A DNA stretch of 64,000 bases from a virus: IMG/VR virus record IMGVR_UViG_3300005436_000501, positions 1 to 64,000 of that record; one strand, 5' to 3'. A program made the position numbers and the translations under genes. Below the pieces are notes generated by a model. The model saw only the letters and a list, made by a program, of their open reading frames with translations, did not search any database and was not told where the DNA came from. This document shows, piece after piece, positions 20,214-60,681 of the stretch (position 1 is its first letter; each line of letters opens with the position of its first letter).

Positions 20214-22998
20214 CCGTGAGCGGCGGCGCGGCATGCGCCAGCATCGGCGGGTGACCCCGCAACCGCCACCCGCGGCGCTCCTTCGCGAGACCACCGCAGT
20301 AGCAGCACCGGCAGTCCTGCTTGAGCCGGTGAGACCACGACCACCCGTCGCCGGGATGCCCGGCCTCGGTCACCTTCCGGTGGTCCCACGTGTACCGCCC
20401 GGTGACGAGCAGCGGCGCGCAGTCCTCGCACACATACCCGTCGTCGTTGATCCACGCGATGCCCGAACCTGGCTCGGGTTCCTCGCGCGGACCGCAGTGG
20501 CAGTACAGCACCGTGCCCTCGTGGCTGACCCAGTGGGTGCGGTGCCAGGACTTGTGCCACGCGTCCGCGTCCGGTTCGGGGCACACGCACAGGCCCTCAA
20601 TCCGGCGTCCCTCCCGCCGGTCGTCGCAGCGGATGAGCGGCTGGTTCGGGCAGTGCGGCAGCCGCACCACCGGATACGGGCAGTCGGGCCGGGCGGCCTG
20701 TTGTTCGCACCAGGCGCGCAGCACGACGTTGCGCCACTCCCATTCGAAGATCCCGAGATGTTGCGCGGCGGCACGGTCCTCGCCCCAGGCCAGAGAGTCG
20801 GCGGGATGCCAGACGCCGCGTTTAAGCCGGTCGAGCAGCCATGTGCAGCGCTCGGAGCGCTGCGGCGGGGCCTGCCAGGATGGGTGTTCGCCGACGTCGG
20901 CGGCTGGCGGCTTCACCCGTGCCACGTCGCCACCTGCGCCGTCCACCATTCACGCTGCTCGGCCAGTTCTGCGTCACTCGCCTGCACCGGATACCCGATG
21001 CGTTCGCACGCGGCCCGATACCTCTCCGAGAGCAGAAACGGGACGCTGATGTCGCGCCACGACGCCGGGCCGACCAGGTCTGAGATCGCCTTGACGCGTT
21101 CGAGCAGGTTCTCCTGACCCATCGACCAGGCTCCGGCGGGTGCGCGCGAGTCGCGGGACGCGTGCTCCAGGTCCGCCCACAGGGCGACGAGTTCCGTGCG
21201 CAGCGCGGACGCCAGGTCTTCGCGGGACACCTGTTCCCACGCGTCCGTACTCACGCCTTCGCCTCCGACTCCCGCAGCACCTGCGCGCGGTAGGCCCGCA
21301 ACTCGGCTTCGACCGGCGGTTCGAGCGGGTCACGCGGCACCCACGCCCGGTGTGCTCCCTTGGCGATGTTCCCGGCGCGGATGTCGGCACGCAAGGCCTC
21401 GACCGCTTGGCGAGCCGCGTCCTCGGCGTCGTCCTCGATGAGTCCGAGCGCGTACACGCTCCACCCGATCTCGATCGCGTCGCCGCTGCGCCGGAACCAG
21501 CTCGGCGATTCGAACCGGTCAGCCTGGATCAGCACGTACGGCCGCTCGACCAGGGTGTGCGCCTCGTCCACCGTCACGGCGACGCGGGTGAACGTCCAGG
21601 TTTCGGAGTCATCCATGTCGTAGAGGCTGACGGTCGTCGAGCAGCCGAACACCTCGACCGTGACGGGTGTTCTACGGGTGCGCATCTCTCAGTGGCCCGC
21701 ATCGTGTCGCCCCTGACGGCGCCCCTGCTCGTACGCAGCCGCGATATGACCCGGCCCGAATCCGGGTGGCTGCGCCGGCGTGCTCGGCGAACCCGCCATG
21801 TTGATCTGGATCGGGTTACGCCCGTCCACGCGCTGCCGCCACCGGCGCAGGCATGCTGTCGGGTCCCGCGCGTCGGCCGCCTCGTCGAGCATCTGCCACC
21901 GCTCGTCCACGCTCAGGCGCGCAGCCCACGGCAAGACCGCGAGTAGTGGGATCGACGCCTTTGACAGTGACGGATGCCCGTCCTGCATGACCGTGGTGCG
22001 CCAGAACCCGAACTCCGGATCCGGGCGGGGCGGCTCGGACGCATGTCCGCAGCGGCCCCACACGAGCGTGTGGGTTCCGGTCGTGCGGCAGTCGCGGGAG
22101 CAGCCGTCGAAGTCGCCGGAAGGCGGGGGTGCGGCGTCGGGCATGGCTCCGAGTGTTGCACGCCCCGCAACACGGCTCACAGCCCCCGGCGCTGCGGGAA
22201 GCGGCGTATGTGCACGCGCAGGAAGTCGGCCGGCCCGAGCTCGACGGGCGCGCTGAGCGGCACGAGGAAGCCCGATCCCGCGGCCACGGGCTCACCCCGG
22301 TACGCGACCGCGTCCAGTAGTTCCCCGAACCGCCCGGTGACGAGCAGGACTCTGCCGGGCCGGATCTCCCCGTCCCGGTACGCGCCCAGGGTTCGGGCGT
22401 GCGCGTTGGTGTTGTCGACGTGCTCGACGATCGCGACGTACGGCCAGCCGTGCGGCACGCGTCCGCCGACGCGCAACCCGAGGGTGGCGAGGGTCAGTGG
22501 CGGGAACGCTTTGCCCGCGCAGAACGCGTGGGCGGGCACGCCCCGGTAGCGGCTCGCGGCGGTCGGCGCCGGGTCCGACTCGCCGCACAGCGGGCACTGC
22601 CCCGGCGCGCACGGCCATGCGGCGGGTTCGGCGAGCCAGAGCCGGTGGCGCAGCAGCCGGTCACGGGACGCGCGCGGCGACAGGGTGAAGCCGGGGCGCA
22701 GCATGCTGTGACGGTATCGGGCGGCGGCGACGGTGCGCGGCGAGGTGACGTGACCGTGACCCGCAACCGGGGTGGCGCGGGCTGGCGCGGATCAGGCTGC
22801 TTGCGTCCGGGCGCCAGGGCCGACCCAGCCGGCTTCCAGTTCCACGACCAGGCGCCGCAGCAGTCCCGGCACCCCGCATGAGCACGGGCCGGGCTCGTCC
22901 TCGTCGAACCGCTCGCACAGGTCGTGGTGACAGGACTCTGCGTCTTCGCCCGCGGCTATGAGGTCGGCGCGCAGGTCTGCGGACAGCTCGGTCGGCAC
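20203..22998 (-). other. Hypothetical genes (20203-20949 Cys/His-rich, 20913-21254, 21251-21685, 21689-22143, 22177-22704, 22792-22998)
   Basis: Protein-like ORFs at the end of the leftward arm, converging on the + strand run. Confidence 0.5.
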
Positions 22999-23310
22999 GC
23001 TCCTGTTGTACCCGTATCCGCCGACAGGCGCAGCGAAAACACCCGGACCGGTGCCGCGCCGCCAGAGCGCCACGGGGTGGGTGTGCTGGCCGGTGCGGGC
23101 GTGCGTCGCAGTGTTCGCGCCCGCCGACCGGGTGGCGAACGGCGGCGAACCCGCGCAGAGCACGCCACAGGGCGCGTGCGCCGCGCTACGCTGGGCCTGC
23201 GCGGCTCGATCTCCCCGGATCGCCGCGTGCCCCCCGAGGTCCGCACGCACGGACCCGCCGCCCCGGCCCAGCCCCGTGAGCCGGGGCGGCACCGCACCCG
23301 GAGGACTCTC

Positions 23311-23490
23311 GTGGACAGCCCCGCCGAAACCGCCGCAGACGCGGGCCGTGCGCTGGTGTCCGCGACCCTCGACGTGCGTGAGGTGCCGCTGGACCGGCTG
23401 CGCGGCGAGCACCAGAACCCCGCGCCAGCCGACAGCGGCGGCGCGACCCGCCCCGTGCTGCCCATGGCGGCGTTCAACGCGAGCCTCTAG
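23311..23490 (+). CDS. FxSxx-COOH-like RiPP precursor peptide 1 (59 aa, ends AAFNASL)
   Basis: GGAGG RBS; MDSPAETAADAGRALVSATLDVREVPLDRL...VLPMAAFNASL-stop. Confidence 0.75.
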   Translation: MDSPAETAADAGRALVSATLDVREVPLDRLRGEHQNPAPADSGGATRPVLPMAAFNASL

Positions 23491-23498
23491 GAGCACCC

Positions 23499-23672
23499 AT
23501 GAACCACGACACCGGGCGTGAGGCGTCCACGGTCGCAGACACGCGCACGGTGCCGCTGCGGACGCTGCTGACGCGCACGCGGGTGGGCGCCGGGTCGGAC
23601 GCTCCGGCGCGGGTCACGGGCGAAGGCGGCCCCGGGGTGCTCCCGAAGGCCGCCTTCACATCCGCGATCTGA
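23499..23672 (+). CDS. FxSxx-COOH RiPP precursor peptide 2 (57 aa, ends AAFTSAI)
   Basis: AGGAG RBS; MNHDTGREASTVADTRTVPLRTL...VLPKAAFTSAI-stop; absent from the ORF track. Confidence 0.8.
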   Translation: MNHDTGREASTVADTRTVPLRTLLTRTRVGAGSDAPARVTGEGGPGVLPKAAFTSAI

Positions 23673-23774
23673 CAGCCCCCTACGCGTCCGGGTCCACGAA
23701 CGTCGCGTACGTGTCGATGCTCTTCTGCCGCCCCGCGAACACGGCGCACACCTGCAATCTCGCGCCGCGTCGGC

Positions 23775-24302
23775 TTAGACATCGGGAACCTCCGGTTCGC
23801 TCGCGGCGATGTCCGCGAGCACCTGCAACTCGCCCACGCCCTCGAAGTCGGCCATGTCCACCGCCGTCTCGGCGATGCGCTGCGCGTAGTCGCTGAACCG
23901 GGTCGAGTCCAACACCAGCACGAGCGAATGGTCCGCGTCCCAGCCGCGCCGGATCTTCGTGTCGTGGCGCCAGTGCGACGCCTCCGGGTACTGCTCGTGG
24001 AGCACCCAGCCGCGCGCCGCCAGATACGCCCGCAGCCGACCGGGGGAGTGCACGGCGGGGTCGATCAGCGGTTCGAGGCTGCGCGGCACGATCCGCAGCG
24101 ACCGGGCCTGGTCGAGCAGCGCCAGTACCGCCTCCATGTCGGTGCGGTCCAGCGCGTACACCCCGCGCGGCCACTCCTGCGAGCGGAACGCGTCATTGTG
24201 GACCAACTCGCTGCCGAGGTTGTGCACCTCGGGGCCGAGTTCGGCCAGCAGGGCACGGATGCGCTGCTCGGCGTGCACAGTGCCATGCCTGCGCTCAGCC
24301 AT
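23775..24302 (-). CDS. Hypothetical protein with LxxYLxxxGW...DYxxRIxE domain
   Basis: RLRAYLAARGW...FSDYAQRIAETAVDMADFEG...VLADI. Confidence 0.55.
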   Translation of the reverse strand: MAERRHGTVHAEQRIRALLAELGPEVHNLGSELVHNDAFRSQEWPRGVYALDRTDMEAVLALLDQARSLRIVPRSLEPLIDPAVHSPGRLRAYLAARGWVLHEQYPEASHWRHDTKIRRGWDADHSLVLVLDSTRFSDYAQRIAETAVDMADFEGVGELQVLADIAASEPEVPDV

Positions 24303-24605
24303 TGACCGGCTCCGCTCCTATGGGAACCTCGACCCACTTCCCGACGTGGTGGACGCGGTGCGCGACCACCCACGCGCCGGCGGGCATGAGCGCGACGAAC
24401 TCGCGTGCGTCCGCCTCGTCGTCGCATGGTTTGTCCACGGCACTGCCGTCCGCTGCGCGATGCACCGCCGCCCATTCGATCGAGGGAGGCCCGAGCAAGT
24501 CGAGTAGCGCGTCGACCACGTCCGGGAGTTGCTCGCGCGCTTCGAGCCCGTCGGTGGTGTCCGCGCGGGCCGCAGCAGCCAAGGCACGCGCCCGCGCCGT
24601 GTCGA

Positions 24606-25313
24606 TCACTTCGCCGCCCCTTCCGGCCGGGCCGCGAACAGGATCGGCCGGTTGCCCATCACCGTGCGCTCCTCGACACCCCACCCGGCCTTACGCAGCG
24701 TCTCGGCGTAGGCCGCGGCGGCAGCGATCCGGGCCTCGCACCGCTCCTCGAAGTTCGCCCGGTTCGGGTCGGACAGGTCGGACTCGGGCAGCTTGTGCTC
24801 GACGCGCACCGCGCCGAGGCGGTTGGACGCTTCGACCTTGTAGCCGGGTGTCACGACGCTGCCGTACTCGTTGTAGCCCGCGGGTTCGTGCGCCGCGCCC
24901 CAGAGTTCGGCGGCGGCGTCGAGGATCAGCGCGCGCCCCCGCTCGTCGAGGTCGGCCATCACGCCACCGCTTCCACGCTCGGCCGCACGTCCGCGCGCGA
25001 CGATCCCCGCGACCTTCGCCGCGAGCACACCCCGGGTCACGTCCGCGTCCCGGGTGAAGTGCTGCATCGCGCACAGCGCCGTGAGCGCCACGTCCGCGAG
25101 CTCCGCCAGCAGGTCCGCCTGGGTGTGGGTGACGCCCTTGCGCGGATTCTGGCCCACCATCCCGATGTACGCGGCGGCGGCCTCCCCGGCTTCCTCGACC
25201 AGTTTCAGGACCCGCATGGAGTCCTCGTGCGGACTGTCCGGGTTGGAGCGGTCCAGCCACGCCGTGATGTCCGCGACATCCGCGAACAGGTCCCGGGTCT
25301 CGCCGTGCATCAC
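24606..25313 (-). CDS. MazG-like nucleotide pyrophosphohydrolase fused in frame to a hypothetical domain
   Basis: VLKLVEEAGEAAAAYIGMVGQNPRKG...ELADVALTAL. Confidence 0.8.
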   Translation of the reverse strand: MMHGETRDLFADVADITAWLDRSNPDSPHEDSMRVLKLVEEAGEAAAAYIGMVGQNPRKGVTHTQADLLAELADVALTALCAMQHFTRDADVTRGVLAAKVAGIVARGRAAERGSGGVMADLDERGRALILDAAAELWGAAHEPAGYNEYGSVVTPGYKVEASNRLGAVRVEHKLPESDLSDPNRANFEERCEARIAAAAAYAETLRKAGWGVEERTVMGNRPILFAARPEGAAK

Positions 25314-27788
25314 TCGCTCCCCTCGCCGGCCGCCGCGACGACCCCGGCCGCGCGCAACCGCCGGGTTCGTTCGCGCGCCTCCGCACTCGCGTCATGCCTA
25401 GTGCACCCGCAGCCGCCCACGTCACGGCCCTGCTTCGCCGCCGCGATCGACTCGCGCGAACGCTTGCCGCCCCAATGGCAGCGGCCCTCCACGCAGTCCC
25501 CGCACGTGGCCTCGATGTCCAGCCACATGAGCGCCTCGAGCAGCGCCGTGCGCTTGGGCTCGTAGTCGCCAAGTTCCGGGTCGAGCAGCACCTCGCCGAG
25601 CGCCTCGGCAGCCGCTTCACACCTGAGCTGGTAGGCGTCCATGCGGGCGCCGATGTCGCCGGTCATCACTCGCTCCCTTCGGGCCAGGCCAGTCGCGGCT
25701 TCACGGTAACGACATCCCGGCCGCGCACCAGGTACCGCGACGGCGGCTCACCGAACCCCGGATCCCAGTCCACCTGGATGTGGCCCGCGAACTCGTGGTC
25801 GCCCGCGAACAACTCGACGAGCGCCCTGATCTGCGCCTCGACCTCGTGGCCGCTGCACGCCTGCTCGGGGCCGACGATCGCGTCCGCGGTGTACACCACC
25901 AGCGTTCCGGCGTCGGTTTCGGTTTCGCGCCGGTCGATACGCAGGTGCGCGTCCCATGCGGCGCTTGCGCCGACACCGCCGGGGGCGCGGCGGATCTCGG
26001 CGGCGGTCAGTAGCGGCGTGATGGTGATCGCGCCGCTGTAACGGTTCTCATAACTCACGGTCAGTGTCCTGTCTTGTCGGTGTTCGCTGGTGCTTGCTGT
26101 TCGCGGTCCTGGATGCGCTGGCCGAGCAGGACCCGCGCGGCGGCACGGTCGCCCACGGCCAGGGCTTTGAGGATCGCGTGCTCGGCGGCGGTCACGACGC
26201 GGACCCGGCCCGCTTGGCGAGCAACGCGGCGAGTTCGCGCGCCGCCGGACTCCCAGCCTCGGCGAGCGCCGCCCACAACTCGTCGGCGAACACGAACTTC
26301 TTACGGTCCTCGTTGGTCCACACCCTCAGCGCCTCGACACGGCGCACGGCCTCGCGGGTCTCCTTGACCTCCCGGCTCAGCCGCTCGTTCGCCTTTACCT
26401 GCGCGTCGAGTTGGCGGCGCAGTTCACGGATCAGGCCCTCGTGGCGCTGCTCCTGGCGTGCTGCTGCGGCACGTACTTCCGCGATGCGTGCGTCTGCGTC
26501 TCCCTCGACGGCGCGGATCTGCGGTTCGGCGATCTCCTGTGCGCGCCGCTGGATGTACCCGCCCAGGTTCTGCGTGGCCACGGCCAGGTTCTCGGCCGCC
26601 TCCGCGAGCAGGTACGGCGCCGGATCGGCGGCCATCACTCGTCGTCCGTTCGCGGCGTCGGCCACCGCTCGCGGCACGCAGCCTTGTTCGCGCACTCGGT
26701 CATGCTGCGCGCGGACACGACAACCTTCCCGTCGTGGATCACGTCGCCGTCCGGGAACGCCACGAACCCGCGCGTCCCGGTCCGCCCGCACTGGTGGCAG
26801 CGCCGCTGCGCGTCCGCGTCGACCGGGACGCGCTCGATCTCGACCCCGGTGGGCCACGCCTGCTCGCCGTCGTCCGCGACCTGCCGCAGCCGGCCCGTGG
26901 CCTCGTCGCGGGAGTAGGTGTAGGCGTAGCACTCGGTGTCGCCACAGAACTGGGCGTGCTGCCTGTACGCGTCCACGGCCGCAGTCTTCGCGGCGCGCAG
27001 CAGCGGCTTGTGGGCGAACACCACACCGGTCTTCGGGTGCGTCACACGCCAGAGCATCGCGGTCACCGGGACGCCGCCTTCAATTCGTCGCGGATCTCGT
27101 TCAGGGCCGTGTCGAGCCGGTCGAGCTCCGCGGCCCACGGCGACGACTCGGGCAGCGCCTCACCCGCGTCGATCGAGCACGCCGCTTCCACGGCGTCGGC
27201 CAGGGTCTCGAACGCGGTACGCCAGCGGTCGCAACTGCCGCCGAGGGCCACGACGGCGCGGGTCGCGGCATCCAACTTCGCAGTGAGATCGTCCCGTTCC
27301 TTGAGCGTGAAACGCAGGTCGCCGTACGTCAGGTCGTAGCCGACCACGTCGTACACGGGCGTGTCGTCTCCGCCTGCACCGTTGGCTTCCTCGCAGTCAA
27401 GGAAGCTGCGCAGGCGGTCGGATCCGGTGGTCATGTACTGCTCCTTCTATTGCGGTTCGGTGATGGTGACGACGATGCGGTCCTCGTCCTTCTCCAGGAC
27501 CGCGGCGGTGTACGCGAACACCGGGGTCAGGCGCCCGTGGGCGACGGCCCAGCCGGTGCGGGCGGGCTCGGTGCCGTGCTCGGCGCGGTACACCTTCGCG
27601 GCGACCCTCCCGAAGCTCGACGAGAACCGGCGCCGGAACTCGCTGTCGGCGCCGAGCGCGGCGAGGTAGTCGGCGGCGGTCAGGACGGCGCGGTTGCGGT
27701 AGGCGGCGATGGCGCGCAGCCAGTGGGTGCCGGGCTTGGTGCTGCGGGTGCGCGGCGCCTTGCGCTGGTGGTCCATCGGCTGCTTCAT
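25310..27788 (-). other. Hypothetical genes (25310-25669, 25666-26058, 26192-26635 coiled-coil, 26635-27066, 27063-27434, 27447-27788 basic, possibly DNA-binding)
   Basis: Coupled ORFs downstream of the promoter at about 27850-27879. Confidence 0.55.
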
Positions 27789-27920
27789 CTCGGTCGCCCC
27801 CTGCATAGATCTGACTCTACGGATTCTGTAGAGGTTTGGCTCTAGCTCAACTGTAGACCCATACCTATACTGACTGCAAGGCGTTCCGATGAAATCCAAC
27901 CGAAGAGATTTGGCTCTACA

Positions 27921-28241
27921 ATGCAGACCATGGTCAAGAAGCCCGCGAGCCGACTGGACGACGCCCTCGACGCACTGGAGGCGATCCCCGACGCGGCCAA
28001 ACGCTGGGAAGCCGCCAACGACATGACCGACGCCGTGCGCAAGGCCACCTCGCGCGTAGCCCAGGTCAGATCCGGGATCGTGCGCGAACTGCGTGGACGC
28101 GGAATGACGTACCGGGCGATCGGCGACCTGCTCGGCGTGCACTTCACTCGCGTGAAGCAACTCGAATCGGGCGAGCCCGCGACCCGCTGGGGCAAGTCCG
28201 CGCCCGGTGACGACGAGCCCGCGATCCCGACCGAGGATTGA
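27921..28241 (+). CDS. Small HTH DNA-binding protein against the direction of the arm
   Basis: RSGIVRELRGRGMTYRAIGDLLGVHFTRVKQL. Confidence 0.75.
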   Translation: MQTMVKKPASRLDDALDALEAIPDAAKRWEAANDMTDAVRKATSRVAQVRSGIVRELRGRGMTYRAIGDLLGVHFTRVKQLESGEPATRWGKSAPGDDEPAIPTED

Positions 28242-28529
28242 CCCGCTCACCGCAGCCCCACGAGCCGCAGTAGCACAGCGACACCCTCGGAGCCGAGGAC
28301 CGCGGCGGCGGCGAGCGTGGCCGGCAGTGCGAGCACGGTCACCGGCCACGGCACGCGGCGGCGCCTGCGGCGGGTCACAGGAAGGTCCATCCGAGTGCGA
28401 TGGCGCACACGCCCACGGACCCGGCGAGGCACCCGAGCATGAACGTGCTCGCGAGCAGGCACGCGGTCAGGCGCCGGATGTTGCGCTCGTGCCCGCCGCG
28501 GGGCCCGGCCCGGCCGCACATCGGGCACC

Positions 28530-28991
28530 TCACGGCGCACCGCCGGACTCGAACACCCGCACCGGGATCCCCGCCGCTTTCGCCCGGCGCACGCAGTCCA
28601 TGGTCCCCGCCGACGACCCCACCGGATACGCCATGACGAGCCGGTGGGGCACGTCCGCGAGCACGTCCACCATCCGCTGATTACGCAGCGGCCCGGCGGC
28701 GCGCCCGAACCGGGTCCAGTCGGCCGGACGCGGGTCGGTGGGGTGGCCGGCGGACAGTGCCCAGCGGTGCGCCTGCCAGTCCGCGCCGAGCAGCCGGTCC
28801 GGGTGGATCCCGCAATCCCCGGCCCGGTCCCAGCGAATGACGCGTTTGGTGTCGGGGTGACGCGGGTCGCACTGCCCGTGCACGACCATCAGGTGCTCGC
28901 ACAGTTCCGCGGCGAGCGCGTCGAGGGTCGCGGGCAGCAGCCCGTCGGCGGGCAGGAACCTCGATCCGGTGACGAGCACGAACGCGGTCAT
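28530..28991 (-). CDS. SLOG-family (DUF2493/YspA-like) protein
   Basis: VLVTGSR, VVHG, GADWQAHRWA, PADWTRFGRAAGPLRNQRMVD, SAGTMDCVRRAKAAGIPV. Confidence 0.85.
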   Translation of the reverse strand: MTAFVLVTGSRFLPADGLLPATLDALAAELCEHLMVVHGQCDPRHPDTKRVIRWDRAGDCGIHPDRLLGADWQAHRWALSAGHPTDPRPADWTRFGRAAGPLRNQRMVDVLADVPHRLVMAYPVGSSAGTMDCVRRAKAAGIPVRVFESGGAP

Positions 28992-29482
28992 CCGGCTTCC
29001 TCTTCGTCGGCCTGCGCGACACGCGCCTCCCACTCGCGGCGTGCGCCGTCGATGCCGAGCCACACCGCCGCCGGGGTGCCCGTGGCGTGCGCGAACTTCA
29101 CCGCGACATCCGGGCTCAGACCGACCTTGCCGCTGATGACCTGGTTGACGTGCTTGGCTGTGAGTCCGGTGATCCGGGCGAGCATGATCTGTGTCATGCC
29201 GAGCGACCTGAGGGTGCGCGCGATCGCGTCGCCCACGGTCGGCGGCGGGGGTGGCGGCTTGGGCGTCTCGGTGCGGGTCGCGGCGATCACGATCCGCGCC
29301 AAAACCTCGGCCGAGCCGTGGACGTGCGTGTCGCCTGCGACCTTCGCGGACCAGTTGACCGGGTGCGTGGTCCAGCATTCGTCTTCGGGTGGCCCGCAGT
29401 CGCCGTCGCACTGGTAGGCCGCTTGCCGCAGGGCTTCGGCACCGATTGCGGCGAGCGCGGTGGGGACTTCGTCGGGGGTCAT
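28988..29482 (-). CDS. Protein with C-terminal HigA/XRE-like HTH
   Basis: LRSLGMTQIMLARITGLTAKHVNQVISGKVGLSPDVAVKF...WL. Confidence 0.7.
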   Translation of the reverse strand: MTPDEVPTALAAIGAEALRQAAYQCDGDCGPPEDECWTTHPVNWSAKVAGDTHVHGSAEVLARIVIAATRTETPKPPPPPPTVGDAIARTLRSLGMTQIMLARITGLTAKHVNQVISGKVGLSPDVAVKFAHATGTPAAVWLGIDGARREWEARVAQADEEEAG

Positions 29483-31521
29483 CGTTCGCCCTCCGTGTCC
29501 CGGATCATCAGGTCGACCAGGTCGCCCGGGATGCCGCGTTCGATCGCGTCGGCGCGGTGCTCGGTGAGCCAGTCGCGCCGCTGCTCGGGCGTGTACCGCC
29601 GCCACAGGTCCGAGGCGTTGGGCGGCAGGATGACCAGGCCGCCGGTGCTGTCGGCCTGCGCCTGGAGCCACAGGCGGTGCAGCCGGGCCATCTCCGGGTC
29701 GGACTTGGGCGTGATCGCCAGGAGCGGCGGGCACTGCGTGTCGAGCACGGCCATGACTGCGTCCGCCTGCGCGTCCGGGGTGAGGGTGCGGCAGTCGTCG
29801 AGCACGGTGCGAATACGGGCGCGCAGGTCGTCAGTCATCGCGACCACCCTCGGTGCCGGGCTCGTCGGCGGGTCCGTCGAGGGTTTCGTGCAGGATCCGG
29901 CTCGCCTCCTGGCGCAGCGTGCCGTCGGGCGACGCCGACCAGGTGATCGCGAGTTGCCGGACGCGGGCGACGGTGTCCGTGGCGACGCGCAGGCGGCGTT
30001 CGATCTCGTCGCGCTGCGGGTCGACGCGTTCGTGGATCGCGGCGAGGAACGCGTCCATCTCCTCCGGCGGCACGTCGGCCGGCCCGGCGAGCTCGTCGAT
30101 CGACTCGATCGGGGACACGCCCTGCTCGGCGGCCAGGTCCTCGAGCGTCCGGGTGCGCATCTGGACCTCGATCGTCGAGATCCCGACGGGGAACGGCGAC
30201 CAGGGGACGCGCGCCCACACCCCGCGCCCCAGGTGCGTGTACCCGGCCGTGGTGACCGTGACGTGTTCGCCTGTCTCGTCGGGGTCGTGGCGGGGGCAGT
30301 AGTGCTTGCCGTCGCGGGTGGACCACCCGGCTTCCGCGAGTGCCACCTCGACGGTCTCGGGACTGGGGTCGTCGGGGGTGAGGGTCGGGCAGGCGCCGGC
30401 GAGGGCGTGGGCGGCGCGTTCGCAGGTCACGGTGACGCGGTGCGTGATCACAGCGCGGCCTCGGTCTCGGCCGGTTCGGTCGCGGCGTCGGCGCACTGCT
30501 CGAGCCACGAATGCCCGCAGGTGCGGCACGCCCGCACCACATGCTCCGGATGGCCGGGATCCGCGGTGAACCCACCGCCGGACCACGCCGGGCGGAACTC
30601 GACGGTCGGTGCACGGTTCGCCTCGCCGCACTTCGAGCAGGGGACGTTGCCCCGGCTGAACGGCGGCAGGTCCGGGTGTTCGCCGAAGGTCAGGAGCGCC
30701 GCCGCAGTGGTCAGCGCCCCGGACCAGCCGGGGCGGTCCAGGGTCTCGATCTCCCGGGCGCAGAGCCCCCGCGTCGCCTGCTCGACGACGGCGGCGACGG
30801 CGTGGGCGAGTTCACTGCGCTGCCAGGTGGTGCGGCGCAGCCGGAACTGCCACCAGCGCCACGGGAACCGTTCGAGGGCGATCAGGGCGGCGCCGAGCGC
30901 CTCACTGGAGGGTTCGCGGTCGGTGGTCACAGGGCTCCGTTCAGGGTCGCGGCCGGCTGCCCGGCCTGGTCGGGTTCGAGGGCCGCGCGCAGTTGCGCGA
31001 TCACCCATGCGCCGCCCTGCGCGTACAGGGAGCCGGGTCCGTCCGGGTCGGGCAGCGTCCGCTCGGCCCGGGCGAGTTCGGCACGCACCACCTGGACCAG
31101 GGCGACGGCGGCTTCCCGCTGGGCGGCCTCACCCCGCCAGATGCGGGCCTGGTCGCTCTCCGTCTCGGCGCGGGCGACCGCGCAGTCCAGGGCGCGGGTG
31201 ACGGCCTGGGCGGTGTCGCCGGGCAGGTTCGCGCGCACCCACCGCAGCTCGGCGGCCAGGGTGCGGTGCGCCGGGGGCGCCTGCGTCTCGGTCACCGGGC
31301 ACCCCCGAACAGCACGCCGTGCTCCGCCCACGCGTTGGCCACGGTGGGCCGGTCCAGCCACGGCCCGGACACGTGGTCGTGGCACGGGCACACCCACACC
31401 CAGCGGGCACGCTCGACGAAAGCGCCGCCCTCGAACACGGTGAACGTGCGCGCCTCGACCCGCATCGCGTCCGGGTGCGCCGCGGCGAGACCGGGCGCAG
31501 TAGCGAGGTTCAGCGGCCCGG

Positions 31522-32043
31522 TCACCGTGCGTCCCCGCCGTGCCGGGTGACGCCCAGCGCCCCGCACCCGAAACCGCGGTGCACCAGGTTCGGGCGGTTC
31601 ACCGCCGAGAAGTCCGCCATCAGCTTGCCCAGGTGCCACTTGACGGTGTTCGGCACGAGATACATCTCCCGGGCGATCTGCGGGTTCGTCAACCCGCCGG
31701 CGGCCAGGTCGAGGATCTGCGCGCGCCGCGGCGTCAAAGCCACGGCGGGGCCCGGTTCGGCGTGCAGCAGGCCGCGGTGGTGGGCGAGCGCGACGCCGTG
31801 GGCGCTGTTGGACGCGCCGAGCGCGCGCAGCGCCCGGTACAGGTGGGCTTTGACGGCGTCGGCGCTCGAGTCGAGGCGGCGGGCGGCGCCGGCGGCGGTG
31901 TGGCCGTGGGCGAGCAGGGTCAGGATCTCGGTTTCGCGGGGTGTCAGGTCGCGGGCGCGGTGTCCGAGCGGGCCGAGCGCCAGCGCGAGGGTGGGGGCGT
32001 TCAGGCGCAGCGGCGCGCCCGGACGCTCCAGGGTGGCGGTCAC
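31522..32043 (-). CDS. Tandem LuxR-type HTH regulator
   Basis: LTPRETEILTLLAHG... and LTPRRAQILDLAAGGLTNPQIAREMYLVPNTVKWHL. Confidence 0.85.
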   Translation of the reverse strand: MTATLERPGAPLRLNAPTLALALGPLGHRARDLTPRETEILTLLAHGHTAAGAARRLDSSADAVKAHLYRALRALGASNSAHGVALAHHRGLLHAEPGPAVALTPRRAQILDLAAGGLTNPQIAREMYLVPNTVKWHLGKLMADFSAVNRPNLVHRGFGCGALGVTRHGGDAR

Positions 32044-32435
32044 TTCGAGGCCTTGCGGCGGGCCAGCGCGGCGGAGTCGCCCGGGTAGACCCAGAGTTCC
32101 CCCCACGGCTCCTCGCGGGCGACCATGCCCACCGCGCCGGGCGACACGCACTTGCCGTCCTTCTGGTGCGCGTCGAAGCCCGTGACGCTGCTGATCGTCT
32201 CGTGGCAGGAGCCGCAGTGGTTGCGGTCCCGGCCGGTCCACCACCGCCCGCATGCGCCGTGGCGGATCACCTCGTCCCGGGCGACGCCGAGCGACGCGGG
32301 GTCGGGCTGTGCCCCGGAATGGCCCCGGGAAGCTCCCGGGCGAGCGGATAGAGCGCCTGAGGGGGTCGGGTGCGAGGGATTTTGCATCGGGGGCTCCTGT
32401 CGGTCGTTGGCGGTCTGGTCGTGGAGGTCGGTCAC
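32040..32435 (-). CDS. FDXHR-type zinc-binding phage protein
   Basis: CGRWWTG...HCGSCHETISSVTGFDAHQ...C. Confidence 0.65.
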   Translation of the reverse strand: MTDLHDQTANDRQEPPMQNPSHPTPSGALSARPGASRGHSGAQPDPASLGVARDEVIRHGACGRWWTGRDRNHCGSCHETISSVTGFDAHQKDGKCVSPGAVGMVAREEPWGELWVYPGDSAALARRKASK

Positions 32436-32800
32436 GGGGTGCTCTTCGCGGTCTTCTGGCGTTCGCGGGCGGCGCGGCGCTTGAGTGCGCGGCGCTCGTC
32501 CTCGCTCATCCCGCCCCACACACCCGCGTCCTGGCCGGACTCCAGAGCCCACTGCAAGCACTGGTCGATCACGTCACAGCGGCGGCACACCGCCTTCGCG
32601 TCCTCGATCTGCAGCAGTGCCGGCCCGGTGTTCCCGATCGGGAAGAACAGCTCCGGGTCCTCATCGCGGCACGCGGCGCGGTGGCGCCAGTCCCGGTCGC
32701 CCGCCGGGTCCGGGTTGGTGAACCCGGGGCGCAGCACGGCCGCCACACGCCGGGCGGTGACCGCGGACGCCATCGCCGCGAGACCCTTCGCCTGCGTCAC
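32432..32800 (-). CDS. whiB: WhiB-family Fe-S transcription factor, WhiB1/WblE-like
   Basis: DWRHRAACRDEDPELFFPIGNTGPALLQIEDAKAVCRRC...CLQWALESGQDAGVWGGMSEDERRALKRR. Confidence 0.95.
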   Translation of the reverse strand: MTQAKGLAAMASAVTARRVAAVLRPGFTNPDPAGDRDWRHRAACRDEDPELFFPIGNTGPALLQIEDAKAVCRRCDVIDQCLQWALESGQDAGVWGGMSEDERRALKRRAARERQKTAKSTP

Positions 32801-35448
32801 GACGCACCGCCGGTCGCGTGGCCGCGCAGCAGCTCGGCCGTGAGGTCCTGAATCTCGGCCGCCGCCTCGTGCTGCGCGCGGGACTTCACGCACGCCGGGT
32901 CGGTGCACTCCGCCTCCGGGCCCGGGTGGGTCGGCTCGTCCTGTCCGGGCGCCGGGTGCGGGCCGACCGCGCGCTGGCGGCGCACCACGTCCAGCAGCGA
33001 CTCGGGCGCTGCTGGCGCGGGCTTGATCTCGATGTCGTCCTGGTCGCGGCCCCGCCACCACACCGGGAACGGTGAGACGCGCACCTCGAAGTCGGCGGTG
33101 TCCGGCGCCCACAACTCGTCGTTCTGCCACGTGGACGCGATCTCGGCGAGTACGCACCGGTCCAGGGCCGGGCCGGGGCCGACCAGGTTCCCGTTGTCGT
33201 CGTACTCGTCGGCGTCGCGGCGGCACGCGGGCACGTCGCCGATCGGCAGCACCGTCAGGTCGCGGGTGTCGTGGGGGCAGAGGATCTCGGCGACGAGGGC
33301 GCGGTCCTGCAGGCGCACGCGGGCGGTGTGCCCGTCGTCGAGCCATTCGGTGTCGGACTCGGTGGGGACGGTCATGCTGCTGCGCTCCTGATGGGTGCGG
33401 GGACGGGGTTGGGCGGGCACAGGTCGGCGACCTCGGGCAGGCCAGCCGTGGCGGACGGCGAGTGCGCCGAGCACCACCAGCCCGCTGGGTAGGGCCGCAC
33501 GGGGCCCTCGCATTCGCGGTCGGGCCGGGTGGCGTACCCGCACGGGCCGGTGAAGGCCCGGCGGATACGCGGCGCGCGGAGGTCGGCGGTCACGGGGTCG
33601 CCGTCGCGGGGATCTCGAGTTGACCCGGGACCGGCTCCTGCGGCTCGCCGTCCTCGGGCAGGTCGTCGTTGGCGTCCCCGATCCAGTCCAGGCCGGAGTT
33701 CAGCGCCTCGGACACGATGCGGGCCATTCGCGCGGCCAGGATCGGCCCGGCCGGGTGGTCCGACTCCTGTGCGACCCGCAGCACCGCGGCGAGGGTGAAG
33801 GTGAACACGTTCCCCGCGACCAGACCCTCGGCGGCGTCGCGGATGGCGCGCTCGTGCGGGGGAGTCGGCGCGGCGGCGGGGACGACGAACTGGGCGACGT
33901 AGGGCTGGCTCTGGTCGTACATCCGGTTCGACAGGTTCACGAGGCGGTGGCGCACCTTCGTGACGCCCGGGGCGGCGGCCTGGGTGGTCGTGGTGTCGGT
34001 CACGGGTTCTCCTCGGTGTCGTGGCGGGTGTCGGTCAGGTCGGTGAGGGCTTCGCGGATCGCGGCGTCCCACGTGCGGCGGCTGGTGTGGTGGGTGCGCC
34101 CGGTGTCGGCGCGGCGGTCCGCGTCGAGCAGGACCGCGCGGCGCCGGGTGATCTCGTCGGGGGTGTCGGTGAACGGCGGCGCCCAACCCGCCGAAGCCGT
34201 CGGGCGCGACACGGGCAGCACCGGCTCGACGACGGGCTGCGGCGGCAGGCGTCGGCCCGGGCGGCGGGTGAGTGGGGTCGTCGGGCGCGTCACGCCGCAC
34301 CCTGCGGGACCAGGTCGCGCACCAGCTTCGGCAGCGACGCGTCGGCGTTCACCGGGCACCACCCGGCGCGAGCGGTGCAGCCTCTTCGTCGGCCGACCAT
34401 GCCAGGATCTCCAGGTCGGCGGGGTTGACCTGGTCGAGGCGTTGCGCGCCCGCGAGCTCGTCGACCATGGCGCCCAGGGCGGCTCGGCTGTTCCTGGCGA
34501 AGTACAACTCCTGGGCGAGGTTCGGGCGCCCGGCCAGGCCGAGCAGCTCGCTGGCGGCGCTCGGGATCTCGCGGACGCCGTCCGGGGTCGCGGCCAGCGC
34601 TGAGCCGGGGTTGAGGTGGTAGCCGCCCAGGTGGCACGCCCACCCGGCGAAGCACATCGCGGTGCCGCAGTCGGTCTTGCTGGTCCAGCGGGCCTGGTTC
34701 CACAGGTGGGGTTGCGCGTCGATGGCGGTGAGGATCTGGCGGGCGAGGGTGGCGTTGAACGGGTTGAGGGGCTCGGCGGTTTCGGTTGCGGCGCTCACCG
34801 GGCACCCCCGGTCCCGGCGCACTCGGGGCAGTTGCCGGGCTGGCCGATGTTCAGACCCGTGCCCTGGCACGGCTCGCAGTCACCGGACGCGGCGAGCGTG
34901 ACGGGCGGACCGGTGTACGTCGCGCCGCAGTCGCAGTTGCCGGGCGCGGTCAGGGAACCGTGCGGGGGCTGGATCGGGAACGAGTGCTCGTGCGGGGCGG
35001 CCGGCCGCGTCTCGACCAGGACGCCGCGGTGGAACACGTTCGGGACCAGGTCGTCGGTGTAGCACGGCTTCTGCCCGAACTTCGCCCGGTACCAGGCGTT
35101 GAACCGGTGGATCGAGTCGGCCAGCGCCCACGCGGTCTGCTCGGTCAGGGGCGCGCCGTCGGGGTTGTGCTCGCCCTGGGCGTCGGGCTCGTTGGTGTGC
35201 ACGTCGTCGGGGCCGATGACGTGCACGGCCCATTCGGTGTCGGCGTACTCGCGGGCGAACCAGGCGAGTTCGTCGGGGGTGTAGCCGGTCCAGCCGGTCG
35301 TGGCGGTTTGGGTGGCGGTCTGGTCGTTCATTGGCGAGGGTTCCTTCCGGTTGGGGTGCGTGGTCGGTGTCGGATGGGGTGCGGTTCGTCCCGTTTCATG
35401 ATCAAAACTGCGCCGGTTGGTGGCTCAAATGCGCCAGGTCGAGGCCGT

Positions 35449-35925
35449 TCACGCCGCCTCCCACAGGAAGCGCTGCACGCCGCCCGTGCCGCGGTCCTCA
35501 CGGGGCCGCGATGGCATGTCCCAACCCGGCCGCGCCCTGCGCTCCGCGATCACCCGCCACCCCGCGGCGCGCAGGCTCGACCCGGACTCGCCGTCCTGCG
35601 TGTACGTGACCAGGCGGCTGTAGCCCAGCGCCTTCGCGGCGCGCCACGCCGCCCCGTACAGGCACGAGTTCGCGTTCGCGGTCGCGTCGGTGGCCGTGCG
35701 GATCACCTCGAGCGTGTAGCCGTCGTCCAGGTGCCGGGCGACGGGGCGCCCGACGATCGCGACGCCGCGCAGGACCTTGTCGGCGGTGGCGACGCCCATG
35801 CAGAACTTCATCCCGGGCGGTGGGCGGTGGTGGCGGTGGTGTTCGGCGATGAACGTGCAGGCGTCGTTGAAGGAGACCGGGACCAGGTGCAGGGCTGGCT
35901 TGTCTGGTGCGCTGGTGGCGGTCAC
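35449..35925 (-). CDS. XF1762/Mom-like GNAT-fold protein (putative DNA modification)
   Basis: FIAEHHRHH...GVAIVGRPVAR...LEVIR...NANSCLYGAAWRAAKALGYSRLVTYT..ESGSSLRAAGW. Confidence 0.75.
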   Translation of the reverse strand: MTATSAPDKPALHLVPVSFNDACTFIAEHHRHHRPPPGMKFCMGVATADKVLRGVAIVGRPVARHLDDGYTLEVIRTATDATANANSCLYGAAWRAAKALGYSRLVTYTQDGESGSSLRAAGWRVIAERRARPGWDMPSRPREDRGTGGVQRFLWEAA

Positions 35926-35975
35926 GGCGGCCTCCTTCGGCGGGGTGTCGGGTGGTGTCCGGGCGGGATTCATGA

Positions 35976-36494
35976 TCAGAACGGGGGGCTGCCGTCGGCC
36001 GCCGTGCCGCCCCATCCGCCGTTCCCGGCCCCGCCGCCCGCCCACGGGTCGCCCTGCTGGCTGCCGCGGGTGGCCTGCCCGCCGCCGGGCCGCTGCGTGG
36101 ACGGGGCGCCCCCGCGGTTGCTGTTGCCGGTCGCCTTCGTGACCTTGGCTGTGGCGTATTTGAGGCTCACGCCGATCTCCTCGACGTCGAGTTCGACGAC
36201 GGTGCGCTTCTCGCCCTCACGGGTCTCGTAGGAGCGCTGCTTGAGGCGCCCGGTGACGACGACCCGGCAGCCCTTCTCGAGTCCGCTCTCGGCCAGGTTC
36301 TCGGCGGGCTGGCGCCACAGGGAGCAGCGCATGTAGAGAACGTCAGAGTCTTTCCACTCACTGGCCTGCTTATCGAAGACCCGCGTCGTGGACGCCACCG
36401 TGAACGACGCGACCGCCGCGCCGCTCGGGGTAAAGCGCAGTTCGGGAGCGTCCGTCAGCCCGCCGACAATCGTGATCAAGGTTTCACCGGACAT
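35976..36494 (-). CDS. ssb: Single-stranded DNA-binding protein
   Basis: [36 protein letters not shown]...[27 protein letters not shown]; Gly-rich tail ending PPF. Confidence 0.97.
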
Positions 36495-37096
36495 GGGTCA
36501 CGCTGCTTTCGGAGTCGGGTCGGACGGGATGGAGGGGCTGGCGAGTCCTGCGTCCACGACCTCGCGCAGCCGCTGGCAGGCGTCACGGGCCTGCTCGGGG
36601 CTCAGGTACATGGCCATCAGCGCGGCGGCCCCGTCGACGAGGGTGCGCAGGTACGTCGCGGCGGCTTCCCGGGCGTCGTGTGTGCCGGGCCATCCGTCGC
36701 GGTTGTAGATCGCCCAGTAGGCGGCGTCGAGGTTGCGCAGGTCGTGCAGGGCGCCGTACGCGGCTGGGTCGGCGCTGTTCGCGCAGTGGTCGCAGACGGT
36801 GGCGGCTTGGTCGTCGGCGAGGGCGAACACGGCGGTGTTGAGCTCTTCGGGGATCTCGCCGTCACAGACGGCGCAGGGCGAGGTGAAGGGGCGGGCTGCG
36901 ATCCGCAGCGGGGTTGGGGGAGCGGGCATGGCGAGGCTCATTTCGGGTTGGGGTTCGTCGGGGTTGCGGTCCCGGGTCGGCGGGGCGGCGCAGGGGTGTG
37001 CGGCCTCGATCCGTTCGGCGAGAGCGGTGAGGCGGTCGATGGGTGCGTGGAGGGCTCCGAGGACGTGGCATTCGACGGCCGCACGGGGGGCTTCGG

Positions 37097-59175: not shown

Positions 59176-60681
59176 TCAGCGCAGCCAGTCGAACTCGTAC
59201 CGCTGCGGGGTGACCGCGCGCATCCCCTTGCCCCCCGGGAACAGGGTCACCCGCACCAGCCCCCGGATCGCCGCACGCCGCTGACGCATGTCGAACTCGT
59301 CACGCCACACCGTGCGCGCCCCCGGTCCCGCCAGCCGGCGCAGCACCACCGGCACCGTCGCGTCCCGCGCCCGCTCCCGCGCCGCCTCGATCAGCGGCGT
59401 CAGATGCGCCTGCAACGCCATGAACTCGCCGACCGGCAACGCCATCCGCCCGTCCCTCACCGTCGCCGCGAGCACCCGCGCCTGCGCAAGCTGATCCTCC
59501 ATCGCCGCCGCGTCCGCGAGCGCCGCCCGCACCGCGTCGCCGCCGTCCGCGGGCGCCAGCGACGCCGCGAACCCCGGCTGCTCCACCCGCTTGAACACCG
59601 CCATCGTCACCAGCGCGTCCAGGGCCGGCTCCCGCATCGACACCCGGTAGCACTTCCGGCACGTGTACGACCACCCGGCCGCCGACCGGGTGGGGCGCAA
59701 CACCCGCACCGGCTCCTCCGAACCCGGGGCCCGCGTCGCGGCGCACACCCCGCACAGCACCAGCGCGGACAGCAGGTGCGTGACGTCCGAGTCACGGTTC
59801 ACCCGCCGTCCGTCCGCCGTCAGGACCCTGCGCAGACCGTAGTAGGTGACCTCGTCGAGGATCGGCTCCCACGTCGCGTCGACCATGGTCTGGTGGTGCT
59901 GGCGTTTGCCGACGTTCGACAGCCGCAGCAGCAGTCCGCGCACCGCGAGCTGCGACCACTCTTTCGCGTGCGGCGCCGGCACGGCGCGCGCGTTGAGATC
60001 CTTCGCGATCGAGTACATCGACTCGCCCGCGAGGACCCGCGCCGCGCAGTCGCGCACCACCGCGGCCTGCTCCTCGTGCAGGACCTGGCGCAGCAGCGCG
60101 CCCGTGTCCGGGTCGTACTCGCGCCGCCACCCGTACGCGATCCGGCCGTGCGGGCGGCCGCGTTCCGCGTTCAGGCGCACGGTGCGCAGGTTGTTGTCGC
60201 GGATGCGGTCCACGTCGCGTTCCGCGAGCAGCGCGTCGAGGTGTGCGGTGAACCGGTCGTCGGAGCACTCCATGTCGAGCAGGCGCCCGTTGATGCACAG
60301 CAGGATCCCGCGCCGCTCGCACAGGTCTTGCAGCACCAGGTAGGAGCGGGTGTTGCGGTTGGCGCGGGAGGACTCCCACACCACCACCACGTCGCATTCG
60401 CGGACCTCGTCGTCGACGTCCAGGCGCCGGACCATCTCCTCGTAGTCCGGGCGGCCCCGTTTCGCGTAGCGGGACGCGGAGCGTCCCGGGTCTTCGAAGG
60501 TGTCGGCGACGACCCATCCGTGCGCCTCGCACAGGCGCCGGTTCTCCAGGTCCTGGTCGCGGATCGAGGTTCCGCCGCGCGGGTTCAGGCGCGAGTTGCG
60601 GTCGTAGATGAACGCCCGCAGCGGGGTGCCCGGTGCCGGGCGGGCGGCGGCGCCGGGGCGCCGGGTTCGCGGTTTCGCCAT
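59176..60681 (-). CDS. int: Large serine recombinase (integrase)
   Basis: YDRNS catalytic motif, D.GRSAS...RP, WESSR, YGW recombinase domain, LLSALVLCGVC...YTC zinc ribbon, coiled coil. Confidence 0.95.
   Translation of the reverse strand: MAKPRTRRPGAAARPAPGTPLRAFIYDRNSRLNPRGGTSIRDQDLENRRLCEAHGWVVADTFEDPGRSASRYAKRGRPDYEEMVRRLDVDDEVRECDVVVVWESSRANRNTRSYLVLQDLCERRGILLCINGRLLDMECSDDRFTAHLDALLAERDVDRIRDNNLRTVRLNAERGRPHGRIAYGWRREYDPDTGALLRQVLHEEQAAVVRDCAARVLAGESMYSIAKDLNARAVPAPHAKEWSQLAVRGLLLRLSNVGKRQHHQTMVDATWEPILDEVTYYGLRRVLTADGRRVNRDSDVTHLLSALVLCGVCAATRAPGSEEPVRVLRPTRSAAGWSYTCRKCYRVSMREPALDALVTMAVFKRVEQPGFAASLAPADGGDAVRAALADAAAMEDQLAQARVLAATVRDGRMALPVGEFMALQAHLTPLIEAARERARDATVPVVLRRLAGPGARTVWRDEFDMRQRRAAIRGLVRVTLFPGGKGMRAVTPQRYEFDWLR

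Follow-up and report, generated by a model that had tools for sequence, protein, structure and literature searches.

What might a bacteriophage gain from carrying the precursor of an enzymatically modified peptide when it carries none of the partner genes of that precursor? The question is raised by a window of 64,000 nucleotides, bases 1-64000 of the 127,094-bp IMG/VR record IMGVR_UViG_3300005436_000501, which belongs to a large siphophage of soil actinobacteria. Two short tandem genes in this window, here named pep1 and pep2, encode peptides that resemble FxsA, the FxSxx-COOH precursor of bacterial Fxs loci and a member of the peptides that are made by the ribosome and modified after translation (RiPPs). 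The pair appears to represent a known peptide family in a new setting, being viral, orphan, tandem, placed in a swap slot and of a diverged sequence type.

Two tandem peptide genes on a phage

Both genes lie on the plus strand, each behind a ribosome-binding site. The Shine-Dalgarno sequence of pep1 (GGAGGA, 23300-23305) is separated from the GTG start by 5 nt, and that of pep2 (GGAG, 23490-23493) overlaps the pep1 stop codon and stands at the same distance from its ATG. The leader box reads DVREVPLDRL in pep1 and DTRTVPLRTL in pep2, and the C-termini, VLPMAAFNASL and VLPKAAFTSAI, run directly into the stop codons. A sequence-only reading of the window had described the two genes in this form, and the sequence bears it out. 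An FxSxx end is present in one of the two peptides: F-T-S-A-I at the pep2 stop codon fits the FxSxx-COOH motif, while F-N-A-S-L in pep1 does not, having Ala instead of Ser at the i+2 cross-link position.

The GC content at the first, second and third codon positions (GC1, GC2 and GC3) is 0.81/0.58/0.92 in pep1 and 0.70/0.65/0.91 in pep2, which is the coding signature of a genome of 72% GC, and both therefore look coding. Antisense open reading frames (ORFs) use the same third-position column with GC1 and GC2 inverted, a difference that discriminates clearly for pep1 and weakly for pep2, and the translations of the long antisense ORFs are rich in Arg, Ala and Gly. The two peptides share 40% identity (BLASTP E 4e-5), and despite this divergence both copies keep both motif blocks. 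To judge from these features, pep1 and pep2 look like real genes, and they are probably translated. Searches of Pfam and PHROGs returned no match for pep1, pep2 or their immediate neighbours, and a sigma-70 consensus is absent from the region upstream of pep1.

Relation to the FxsA family

The curated model of the family, TIGR04268, has a cut-off of 28 bits and recognises neither peptide; it is on profile-profile homology, accordingly, that membership in the family is founded. By word-indexed search a single close relative was obtained for each peptide, namely P0002, which is 88% identical to pep2, and P0009, which falls in the pep1 cluster. Both are encoded in tandem on one 3.6-kb contig of a second genome, and the C-terminal 31 residues of P0009 are unchanged with respect to pep1, including the FNASL end. 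A three-sequence HMMER profile (pep2, P0002 and pep1) was run against 1.84 billion representatives and retrieved six proteins at E<=1e-3: pep1 and pep2 themselves, P0004 (57 amino acids, ending AAFTSAT), P0007 (60 amino acids, ending AAFNSSI, E 8e-4) and two long repetitive proteins that were taken as spurious. P0007 passes TIGR04268 with 31.4 bits and was, together with Kitasatospora FxsA (38.6 bits), a positive control for that model.

A further comparison was made with hhalign, in which an alignment of five window-type peptides (A5) was matched with an alignment of six genuine FxsA sequences (A4), five bacterial FxsB-adjacent peptides having been collected for the genuine set. The two align with a probability of 97% (E 1.1e-10, columns 9-57 versus 13-60), and the alignment extends from the leader box through the last residue, C-terminus to C-terminus. 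Conservation is highest in the leader box, whose D, R, V, P, L and L are invariant across the window-type peptides and which is common to the FxsB-linked FxsA precursors. In addition, the three clusters nearest to pep2 in the ESM Atlas are all named FxSxx-COOH (scores 0.83-0.85), which is a lead only. A search with the window-type alignment found no relatives in genome contigs or viral contigs, one with P0004 found none in metagenome contigs, and a six-frame TIGR04268 search of the whole record gave a single unrelated match of 10 bits. The resemblance to FxSxx-COOH peptides noticed at first sight goes beyond chance, as the profile search that reaches P0007 indicates, and the conclusion from these comparisons is that pep1 and pep2 are diverged members of the FxsA lineage that lie outside the curated model.

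The likeness to FxsA and its enzyme FxsB (MscB-type; TIGR04268 and TIGR04269; the triceptides) covers a length of about 57-60 amino acids, the leader D-x-R-x-V-P-L-x-x-L, an R-V-L-P-like linker and, in pep2, the C-terminus (V)-A-A-F-x-S-x-x at the stop codon. The differences lie in the curated match, which neither peptide gives, in the Ala of pep1, and in the setting, since the window genes are on a phage, in tandem and without fxs partners within 127 kb, whereas the bacterial copies stand directly upstream of FxsB. Triceptides are RiPPs with a three-residue cyclophane, in which a 3-CyFE enzyme such as the radical SAM/SPASM synthase FxsB joins an aromatic residue at i to the C-beta at i+2 by a carbon-carbon bond. 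The SjiA family (NF040585), a characterised FXSXX-COOH subfamily, is matched weakly by the pep2 relative P0004 and by one peptide of the viral record G004 (E 0.003 and 3e-4), but these scores are 18-21 bits against a cut-off of 75 bits, and pep1 and pep2 give no match at all.

An orphan pair

No FxsB (TIGR04269, which we take to correspond to IPR026335), radical SAM domain (PF04055), HExxH domain (TIGR04267), FxsT (NF040586) or FxsC (TIGR04276) was found in the full 127-kb record at E<=1. The sequence-only reading had seen none of the partner genes in 64 kb; its statement on the lack of a maturase is true of the window and also of the complete record, and a cluster split within the element is ruled out.

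This arrangement departs from that of bacterial Fxs loci. A canonical FxsA query gave six bacterial contig loci, four of which were examined (three Kitasatospora genomes and one Actinomycetota metagenome-assembled genome, MAG); a 4.9-kb MAG contig and a doubtful match in an Odoribacter MAG were left out. FxsB starts less than about 100 nt downstream of FxsA in all four. Five further genomes with a single FxsB were inspected, and four have exactly one TIGR04268 match, 34-56 nt upstream of FxsB; the fifth has no match, and no orphan FxsA copy was detected in these five genomes at E<=0.01. FxsA is therefore directly upstream of FxsB in 8/8 of the bacterial FxsA genes examined. A complete FxsA-FxsB/HExxH-FxsC-FxsT cluster was verified at a single locus, that of Kitasatospora humi (L022), where the order is FxsA (38.6 bits), an FxsB-HExxH fusion (582 bits), an AAC(3)-like acetyltransferase, TIR-like FxsC and FxsT (1062 bits), the last consisting of a KGGVGR AAA domain and TPR. 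In NCBIfam the HExxH partner is now called an aKG-HExxH-type peptide beta-hydroxylase and not a protease. The gene between FxsB-HExxH and FxsC in this locus (12586-13404 of L022) encodes an AAC(3)-like N-acetyltransferase.

One gene of the window was considered as a hidden maturase and rejected. It encodes an HFCD-type flavoprotein (PF02441, 179 amino acids) and adjoins the gene of a 400-residue HTH_31 regulator whose 330 C-terminal residues have no assigned domain. The flavoprotein gene lies 11 kb away from the pair, enzymes of the LanD type modify a Cys at the C-terminus, and pep1 and pep2 have no such residue; no link was found from the flavoprotein or the regulator to the two peptides.

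Recurrence in other viral records

Orphan genes of this kind are not restricted to the present phage. The N-terminal domain encoded by the gene at 24609-25313 was used as a query and led to nine viral loci, and five of their records were searched with the peptide profile. One of them, G004 (91 kb), carries a tandem FxsA-like pair with the ends ASFQSSV and AAFNSSI, in an array whose 31 tRNA genes are packed into 8.2 kb of the stretch 25000-37000, between tRNA-Val and tRNA-Arg and on the same strand. Another, G002 (129 kb), has a single peptide ending ASFNSAL, and the profile finds none in G001, G003 and G005. The three peptides of G004 and G002 score 18.6, 14.4 and 12.8 bits on TIGR04268, all under the cut-off. 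A query with a canonical peptide added one more from G010, a 30.6-kb viral fragment.

Furthermore, an exact DNA pattern for AAFNSSI followed by a stop codon matched 22 IMG/VR stretches. Seven of the 22 are clearly FxsA-like, with a leader box and V-x-V-AAFNSSI, and represent six distinct peptides, two of the seven coming from G004 and its sister contig; eight are not FxsA-like. The other seven (L067, L070, L071, L074, L075, L084 and L085, at about 57% GC) share one identical 57-residue ORF that ends GAAFNSSI and has no leader box, which may encode either a protein without relation to FxsA or a precursor of a very different type. Genes for tRNA are also found near an FxsA-like peptide in L081 and L082.

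Taken together, at least eight other viral records hold intact orphan FxsA-like ORFs (G002, G004, G010 and G410-G414), six of them with the canonical end AAFNSSI, and an alignment of 11 phage peptides and 4 proteins of unknown context shows a shared architecture. The survey of phages for orphan precursors that the sequence-only reading proposed has thus turned up eight further cases, and FxsB is found in 0/9 peptide-carrying viral records, that of the window included. Like the window pair, the genes of these records are stand-alone ORFs on large high-GC viral contigs without FxsB, and G004 also has them in tandem. Most of them end canonically in AAFNSSI and several sit in tRNA arrays, whereas the window pair has diverged further (AAFTSAI and AAFNASL), runs against the strand of its neighbours and has a demonstrable swap slot.

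A variable slot among conserved phage genes

The pair stands on the plus strand between minus-strand phage genes, that is, against the leftward arm. The borders of the slot were mapped by placing contigs from four soil or mine metagenome runs (X2, X3, X7 and X8) on positions 22700-24400. The X2 contig (1272 nt, about 92% identity) covers 22700-23673 including both genes and departs one base past the pep2 stop codon. The X3, X7 and X8 contigs match 22770-23305, or to 23260, at about 96% identity; those of X3 and X7 diverge into other sequence right after the Shine-Dalgarno sequence (23305), and X3 rejoins the window sequence at 23677. The region upstream of pep1 is thus common to relatives that have other cargo. 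In G001, a complete phage that is related, the homologous flanks are no more than about 315 nt apart, which amounts to an empty site with a homologue of the left-flank gene just past it, and in G002 the gap between the flanks holds other genes. Judged by these breakpoints, the pair is evidently the cargo of a variable slot that follows a conserved upstream region and ribosome-binding site. In this it resembles the general concept of phage morons and of phage-encoded mimics of host immune signals or substrates: the pair is small and self-contained, stands between conserved phage genes and varies in presence among relatives. It differs in that an anti-defence activity is only putative and that the candidate target, a host system, is itself uncharacterised.

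The right border is formed by a small minus-strand ORF that is convergent with pep2, its stop lying 7 nt from the pep2 stop. The ORF has a GC3 of 0.90-0.97 in frame and 84-93% nucleotide identity to G001, G002 and G004, and in G001 and G002 it is about 40 codons long (MAQA..VFAGRQ.SIDTYA.FVDPDA). The window copy has a 10-nt gap near its 5' end, and as a result an ATG at 23782 that is led by a ribosome-binding site opens an out-of-frame ORF of 102 codons antisense to pep2. On these grounds the small gene may be disrupted in the window, or may start at an internal TTG or GTG. The exact 23-nt junction word had 0 matches in metagenome contigs; INPHARED was searched with the DNA of 22000-25400 and, by tblastn, with pep2, in both cases without a match; and the neighbours at 23778-24278 and 22180-22704 had no relatives among the viral contigs searched.

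Table 1. Positions of the peptide genes, of the slot that holds them and of other features of the record
Feature	Positions	Strand	Remarks
pep1	23311-23490	+	59 amino acids; GTG start 23311, TAG stop 23488-23490; FxsA-like precursor
pep2	23499-23672	+	57 amino acids; ATG start 23499, TGA stop 23670-23672; FxsA-like precursor
Upstream intergenic region	23011-23305		Presumed promoter region; ends in the pep1 Shine-Dalgarno sequence; divergent to the gene at 22795-23010
Swappable cargo cassette	23306-23676	+	Holds both peptide genes; from metagenome contig breakpoints and related phage genomes
Conserved small ORF, 3' part	23680-23766	-	Right slot border; convergent with pep2
Small gene, left flank of slot	~22795-23010	-	Minus-strand coding signature; C-terminal motif GPCSCGVPGLL; start codon not fixed
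Gene, left side	22180-22704	-	GC3-based gene call
Gene, right side	23775-24278 onward	-	GC3-based gene call
Leftward early block	~57 kb down to 23.8 kb	-	RecT, PD-(D/E)XK nuclease, Prim-Pol, AAA_25 helicase, SSB, WhiB
Serine integrase	59179-60681		Pfam
Terminase	91206-92702		Pfam
Portal-MuF fusion, tail tube protein, tape measure protein			Pfam
HTH_31 regulator	10825-12024	-	400 amino acids
HFCD-type flavoprotein	12050-12586	+	PF02441, 179 amino acids
Ro60/TROVE + vWA protein	13631-15301	-	557 amino acids; phage-encoded
Right end of the record	~104000-124000		GntR/UTRA regulator, second Prim-Pol, two NUDIX proteins, DUF2637, second AAA_25 protein

The element as a whole

The gene map of the record was made by a GC3-based gene call together with Pfam, and its terminase, portal, tail genes and serine integrase agree with the first assignment of the element to a phage. 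CheckV rates the record 97% complete and classes it as a provirus. The phage is temperate, with a serine integrase. The integrase gene is in the middle of the record, with the structural genes on one side and the early genes on the other, and a mid-record integrase between structural and early genes is the order expected of a virion genome and not of an integrated prophage. The Ro60/TROVE gene has 82% nucleotide identity to a gene of the related viral record G002, which is 100% complete, and the DNA to the left of the pair is therefore also phage. Rfam at gathering thresholds found no Y RNA and no other RNA family in the window, and ARAGORN found no RNA gene there. The genes at the right end of the record are typical of actinomycete integrative or conjugative elements.

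How the peptides might act

Kaur et al. (2020) described FxSxx peptides that go with a radical SAM/SPASM enzyme and that they found coupled both to VMAP-ternary systems and to TIR-AP-ATPase-TPR effectors (PMC7159879, section 24), and proposed that the processed FxSxx peptide is a toxin or an amplifying signal. A 2026 preprint presents FxsC as an active TIR and FxsT as ParA fused to an inactive TIR; in its proposal, multicellular actinomycetes would use the peptide, once modified, as an antiviral molecule or as an alarm signal that diffuses, coupled to TIR-ParA apoptosis (bioRxiv 10.64898/2026.10.19.760177). As regards the chemistry, PMC11002830 states that MscB (IPR026335) joins the C4 of Phe to the C-beta of Ser at i+2, and that HaaB and ScaB join the C2 of His to the C-beta of Ala.

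We tentatively favour the view that pep1 and pep2 are a cargo pair of FxsA lineage that acts through host FxsB on the Fxs peptide pathway, a view that comes fairly close to an even chance of being right. The two genes would be co-transcribed as a self-contained cassette in the slot opposite the leftward early genes. In an infected or lysogenic actinomycete, the FxsB-type radical SAM/SPASM enzyme of the host would recognise the phage peptides and either cyclise them, from Phe to the residue at i+2, or be occupied by them. The phage would thereby supply look-alike peptides to a host FxsAB pathway that is genomically coupled to TIR-like FxsC and ParA/TPR FxsT, a predicted abortive-infection or alarm system, which the peptides might blunt, pre-empt or redirect. 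Host FxsB is the likeliest partner because the leader box, presumably the enzyme-recognition element, and the core have been kept while the phage has no modifying enzyme. Such an enzyme is common in potential hosts: FxsB is above its cut-off in 251/301 sampled Streptomycetaceae genomes. The anti-defence or signalling role suggested by the sequence-only reading would fit here, and recognition by host FxsB, an effect on FxsC and FxsT, and an antagonist or agonist direction are all inferred. The same reading had taken the Ala of pep1 for the mark of a decoy. The residue is kept in P0009, but the case for a decoy is weak, given the Ala cross-links that PMC11002830 reports for HaaB and ScaB; the Ala is compatible with a non-cyclisable competitor and equally with an Ala cross-link.

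Several results count against action through host FxsB. The sequence-only reading held that the want of a match to the FxSxx-COOH hidden Markov model would speak against it, and hmmscan against NCBIfam indeed gave no TIGR04268 or SjiA match for pep1 or pep2 at E<=10. The Ser of FxSxx is missing from pep1, and scans of the locus for promoter and terminator consensus sequences gave 0 sites. The peptides are absent from 3/5 related phage records, and are thus dispensable cargo. None of 401 Streptomycetaceae species genomes that were searched by profile has a close relative of pep1 or pep2 (best 25.6 bits), the matches being weak, mostly off-frame or of low complexity, with few extending to the peptide C-terminus; the host may therefore lie outside this family. 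Finally, the Fxs peptide has no established function in bacteria either, and it is therefore conjecture in which direction, and on which target, any interference would act.

A more far-reaching version of the same idea is considerably more doubtful. Large actinophages would then routinely carry orphan FxsA mimics as counter-defence; host FxsB would mature them or be blocked by them, and the product would antagonise or falsely trigger the FxsC/FxsT TIR-ParA suicide or alarm system of multicellular actinomycetes. The window pair would be a two-part device, in which pep2 is the copy that can be cyclised (F-T-S) and pep1 the copy with the Ser-to-Ala change (F-N-A).

Of the competing explanations, a benefit to the lysogen fares best, although it is rather unlikely. 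The prophage would express the pair and host FxsB would mature it, and the pair would then raise or prime the Fxs alarm or abortive response against superinfecting phages, as an agonist and not a jammer. That would suit a temperate phage with a serine integrase, a moron-like position opposite the early lytic genes and behind a conserved upstream region of its own, and the alarm-signal role proposed for the peptide in the preprint (10.64898/2026.10.19.760177). On the other hand, the peptides of other phages that are inside tRNA arrays lie on the main transcription strand, which does not suggest lysogeny-specific expression.

The peptides might also act unmodified, binding a host component directly, for example FxsC, FxsT through its TPR or sensor part, or a target unrelated to these, with FxsA ancestry supplying only the binding epitope. 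An element without a maturase, sequences too diverged for the curated models and the loss from pep1 of the Ser that is cross-linked in characterised members (PMC11002830) would all be in keeping with this. Conservation is nevertheless highest in the leader box, whose expected role is in recognition by the enzyme and not in the mature product, and direct binding by the unmodified peptides is distinctly unlikely.

It is still less probable that the pair is a non-functional passenger, a drifting fragment captured from a host fxs locus. The failure of the curated models, the Ser-to-Ala change, the absence from three of the five related records and the variable slot would be expected of such a fragment, but both frames are intact, led by ribosome-binding sites and strong in GC3, and the second genome retains both genes with conserved cores. 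Moreover, the copies have diverged to 40% identity with both motif blocks kept in each, and intact orphan FxsA-like ORFs recur in at least eight other viral records, canonical ends included. Arbitrium-like communication between phages through a phage-encoded receptor is very improbable: small peptides on a temperate phage and an HTH_31 protein with an unassigned C-terminal region 11 kb away would allow it, but there is no adjacent receptor, the HTH protein has no TPR or receptor match, and the homology indicates a RiPP family that is modified inside the cell.

Implications for Fxs biology

No paper on phage-encoded FxsA-type precursors was found in the full-text literature; phage copies might be among the loci listed in the supplements of PMC7159879 and of the 2026 preprint. 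Most of the sampled Streptomycetaceae have the Fxs locus, a predicted abortive-infection or alarm system whose peptide has no known function. Phages that keep the precursor gene only, without the enzymes and effectors, are a natural pointer to what this peptide does, and their orphan precursors imply that the peptide step may be a point of conflict between virus and host. To RiPP biology they would add precursors whose maturase comes from another genome. If the host maturase is indeed hijacked by pep1 and pep2, this would be the first virus to hijack a host RiPP maturase in order to subvert immunity, and it would provide a testable function for the Fxs system.

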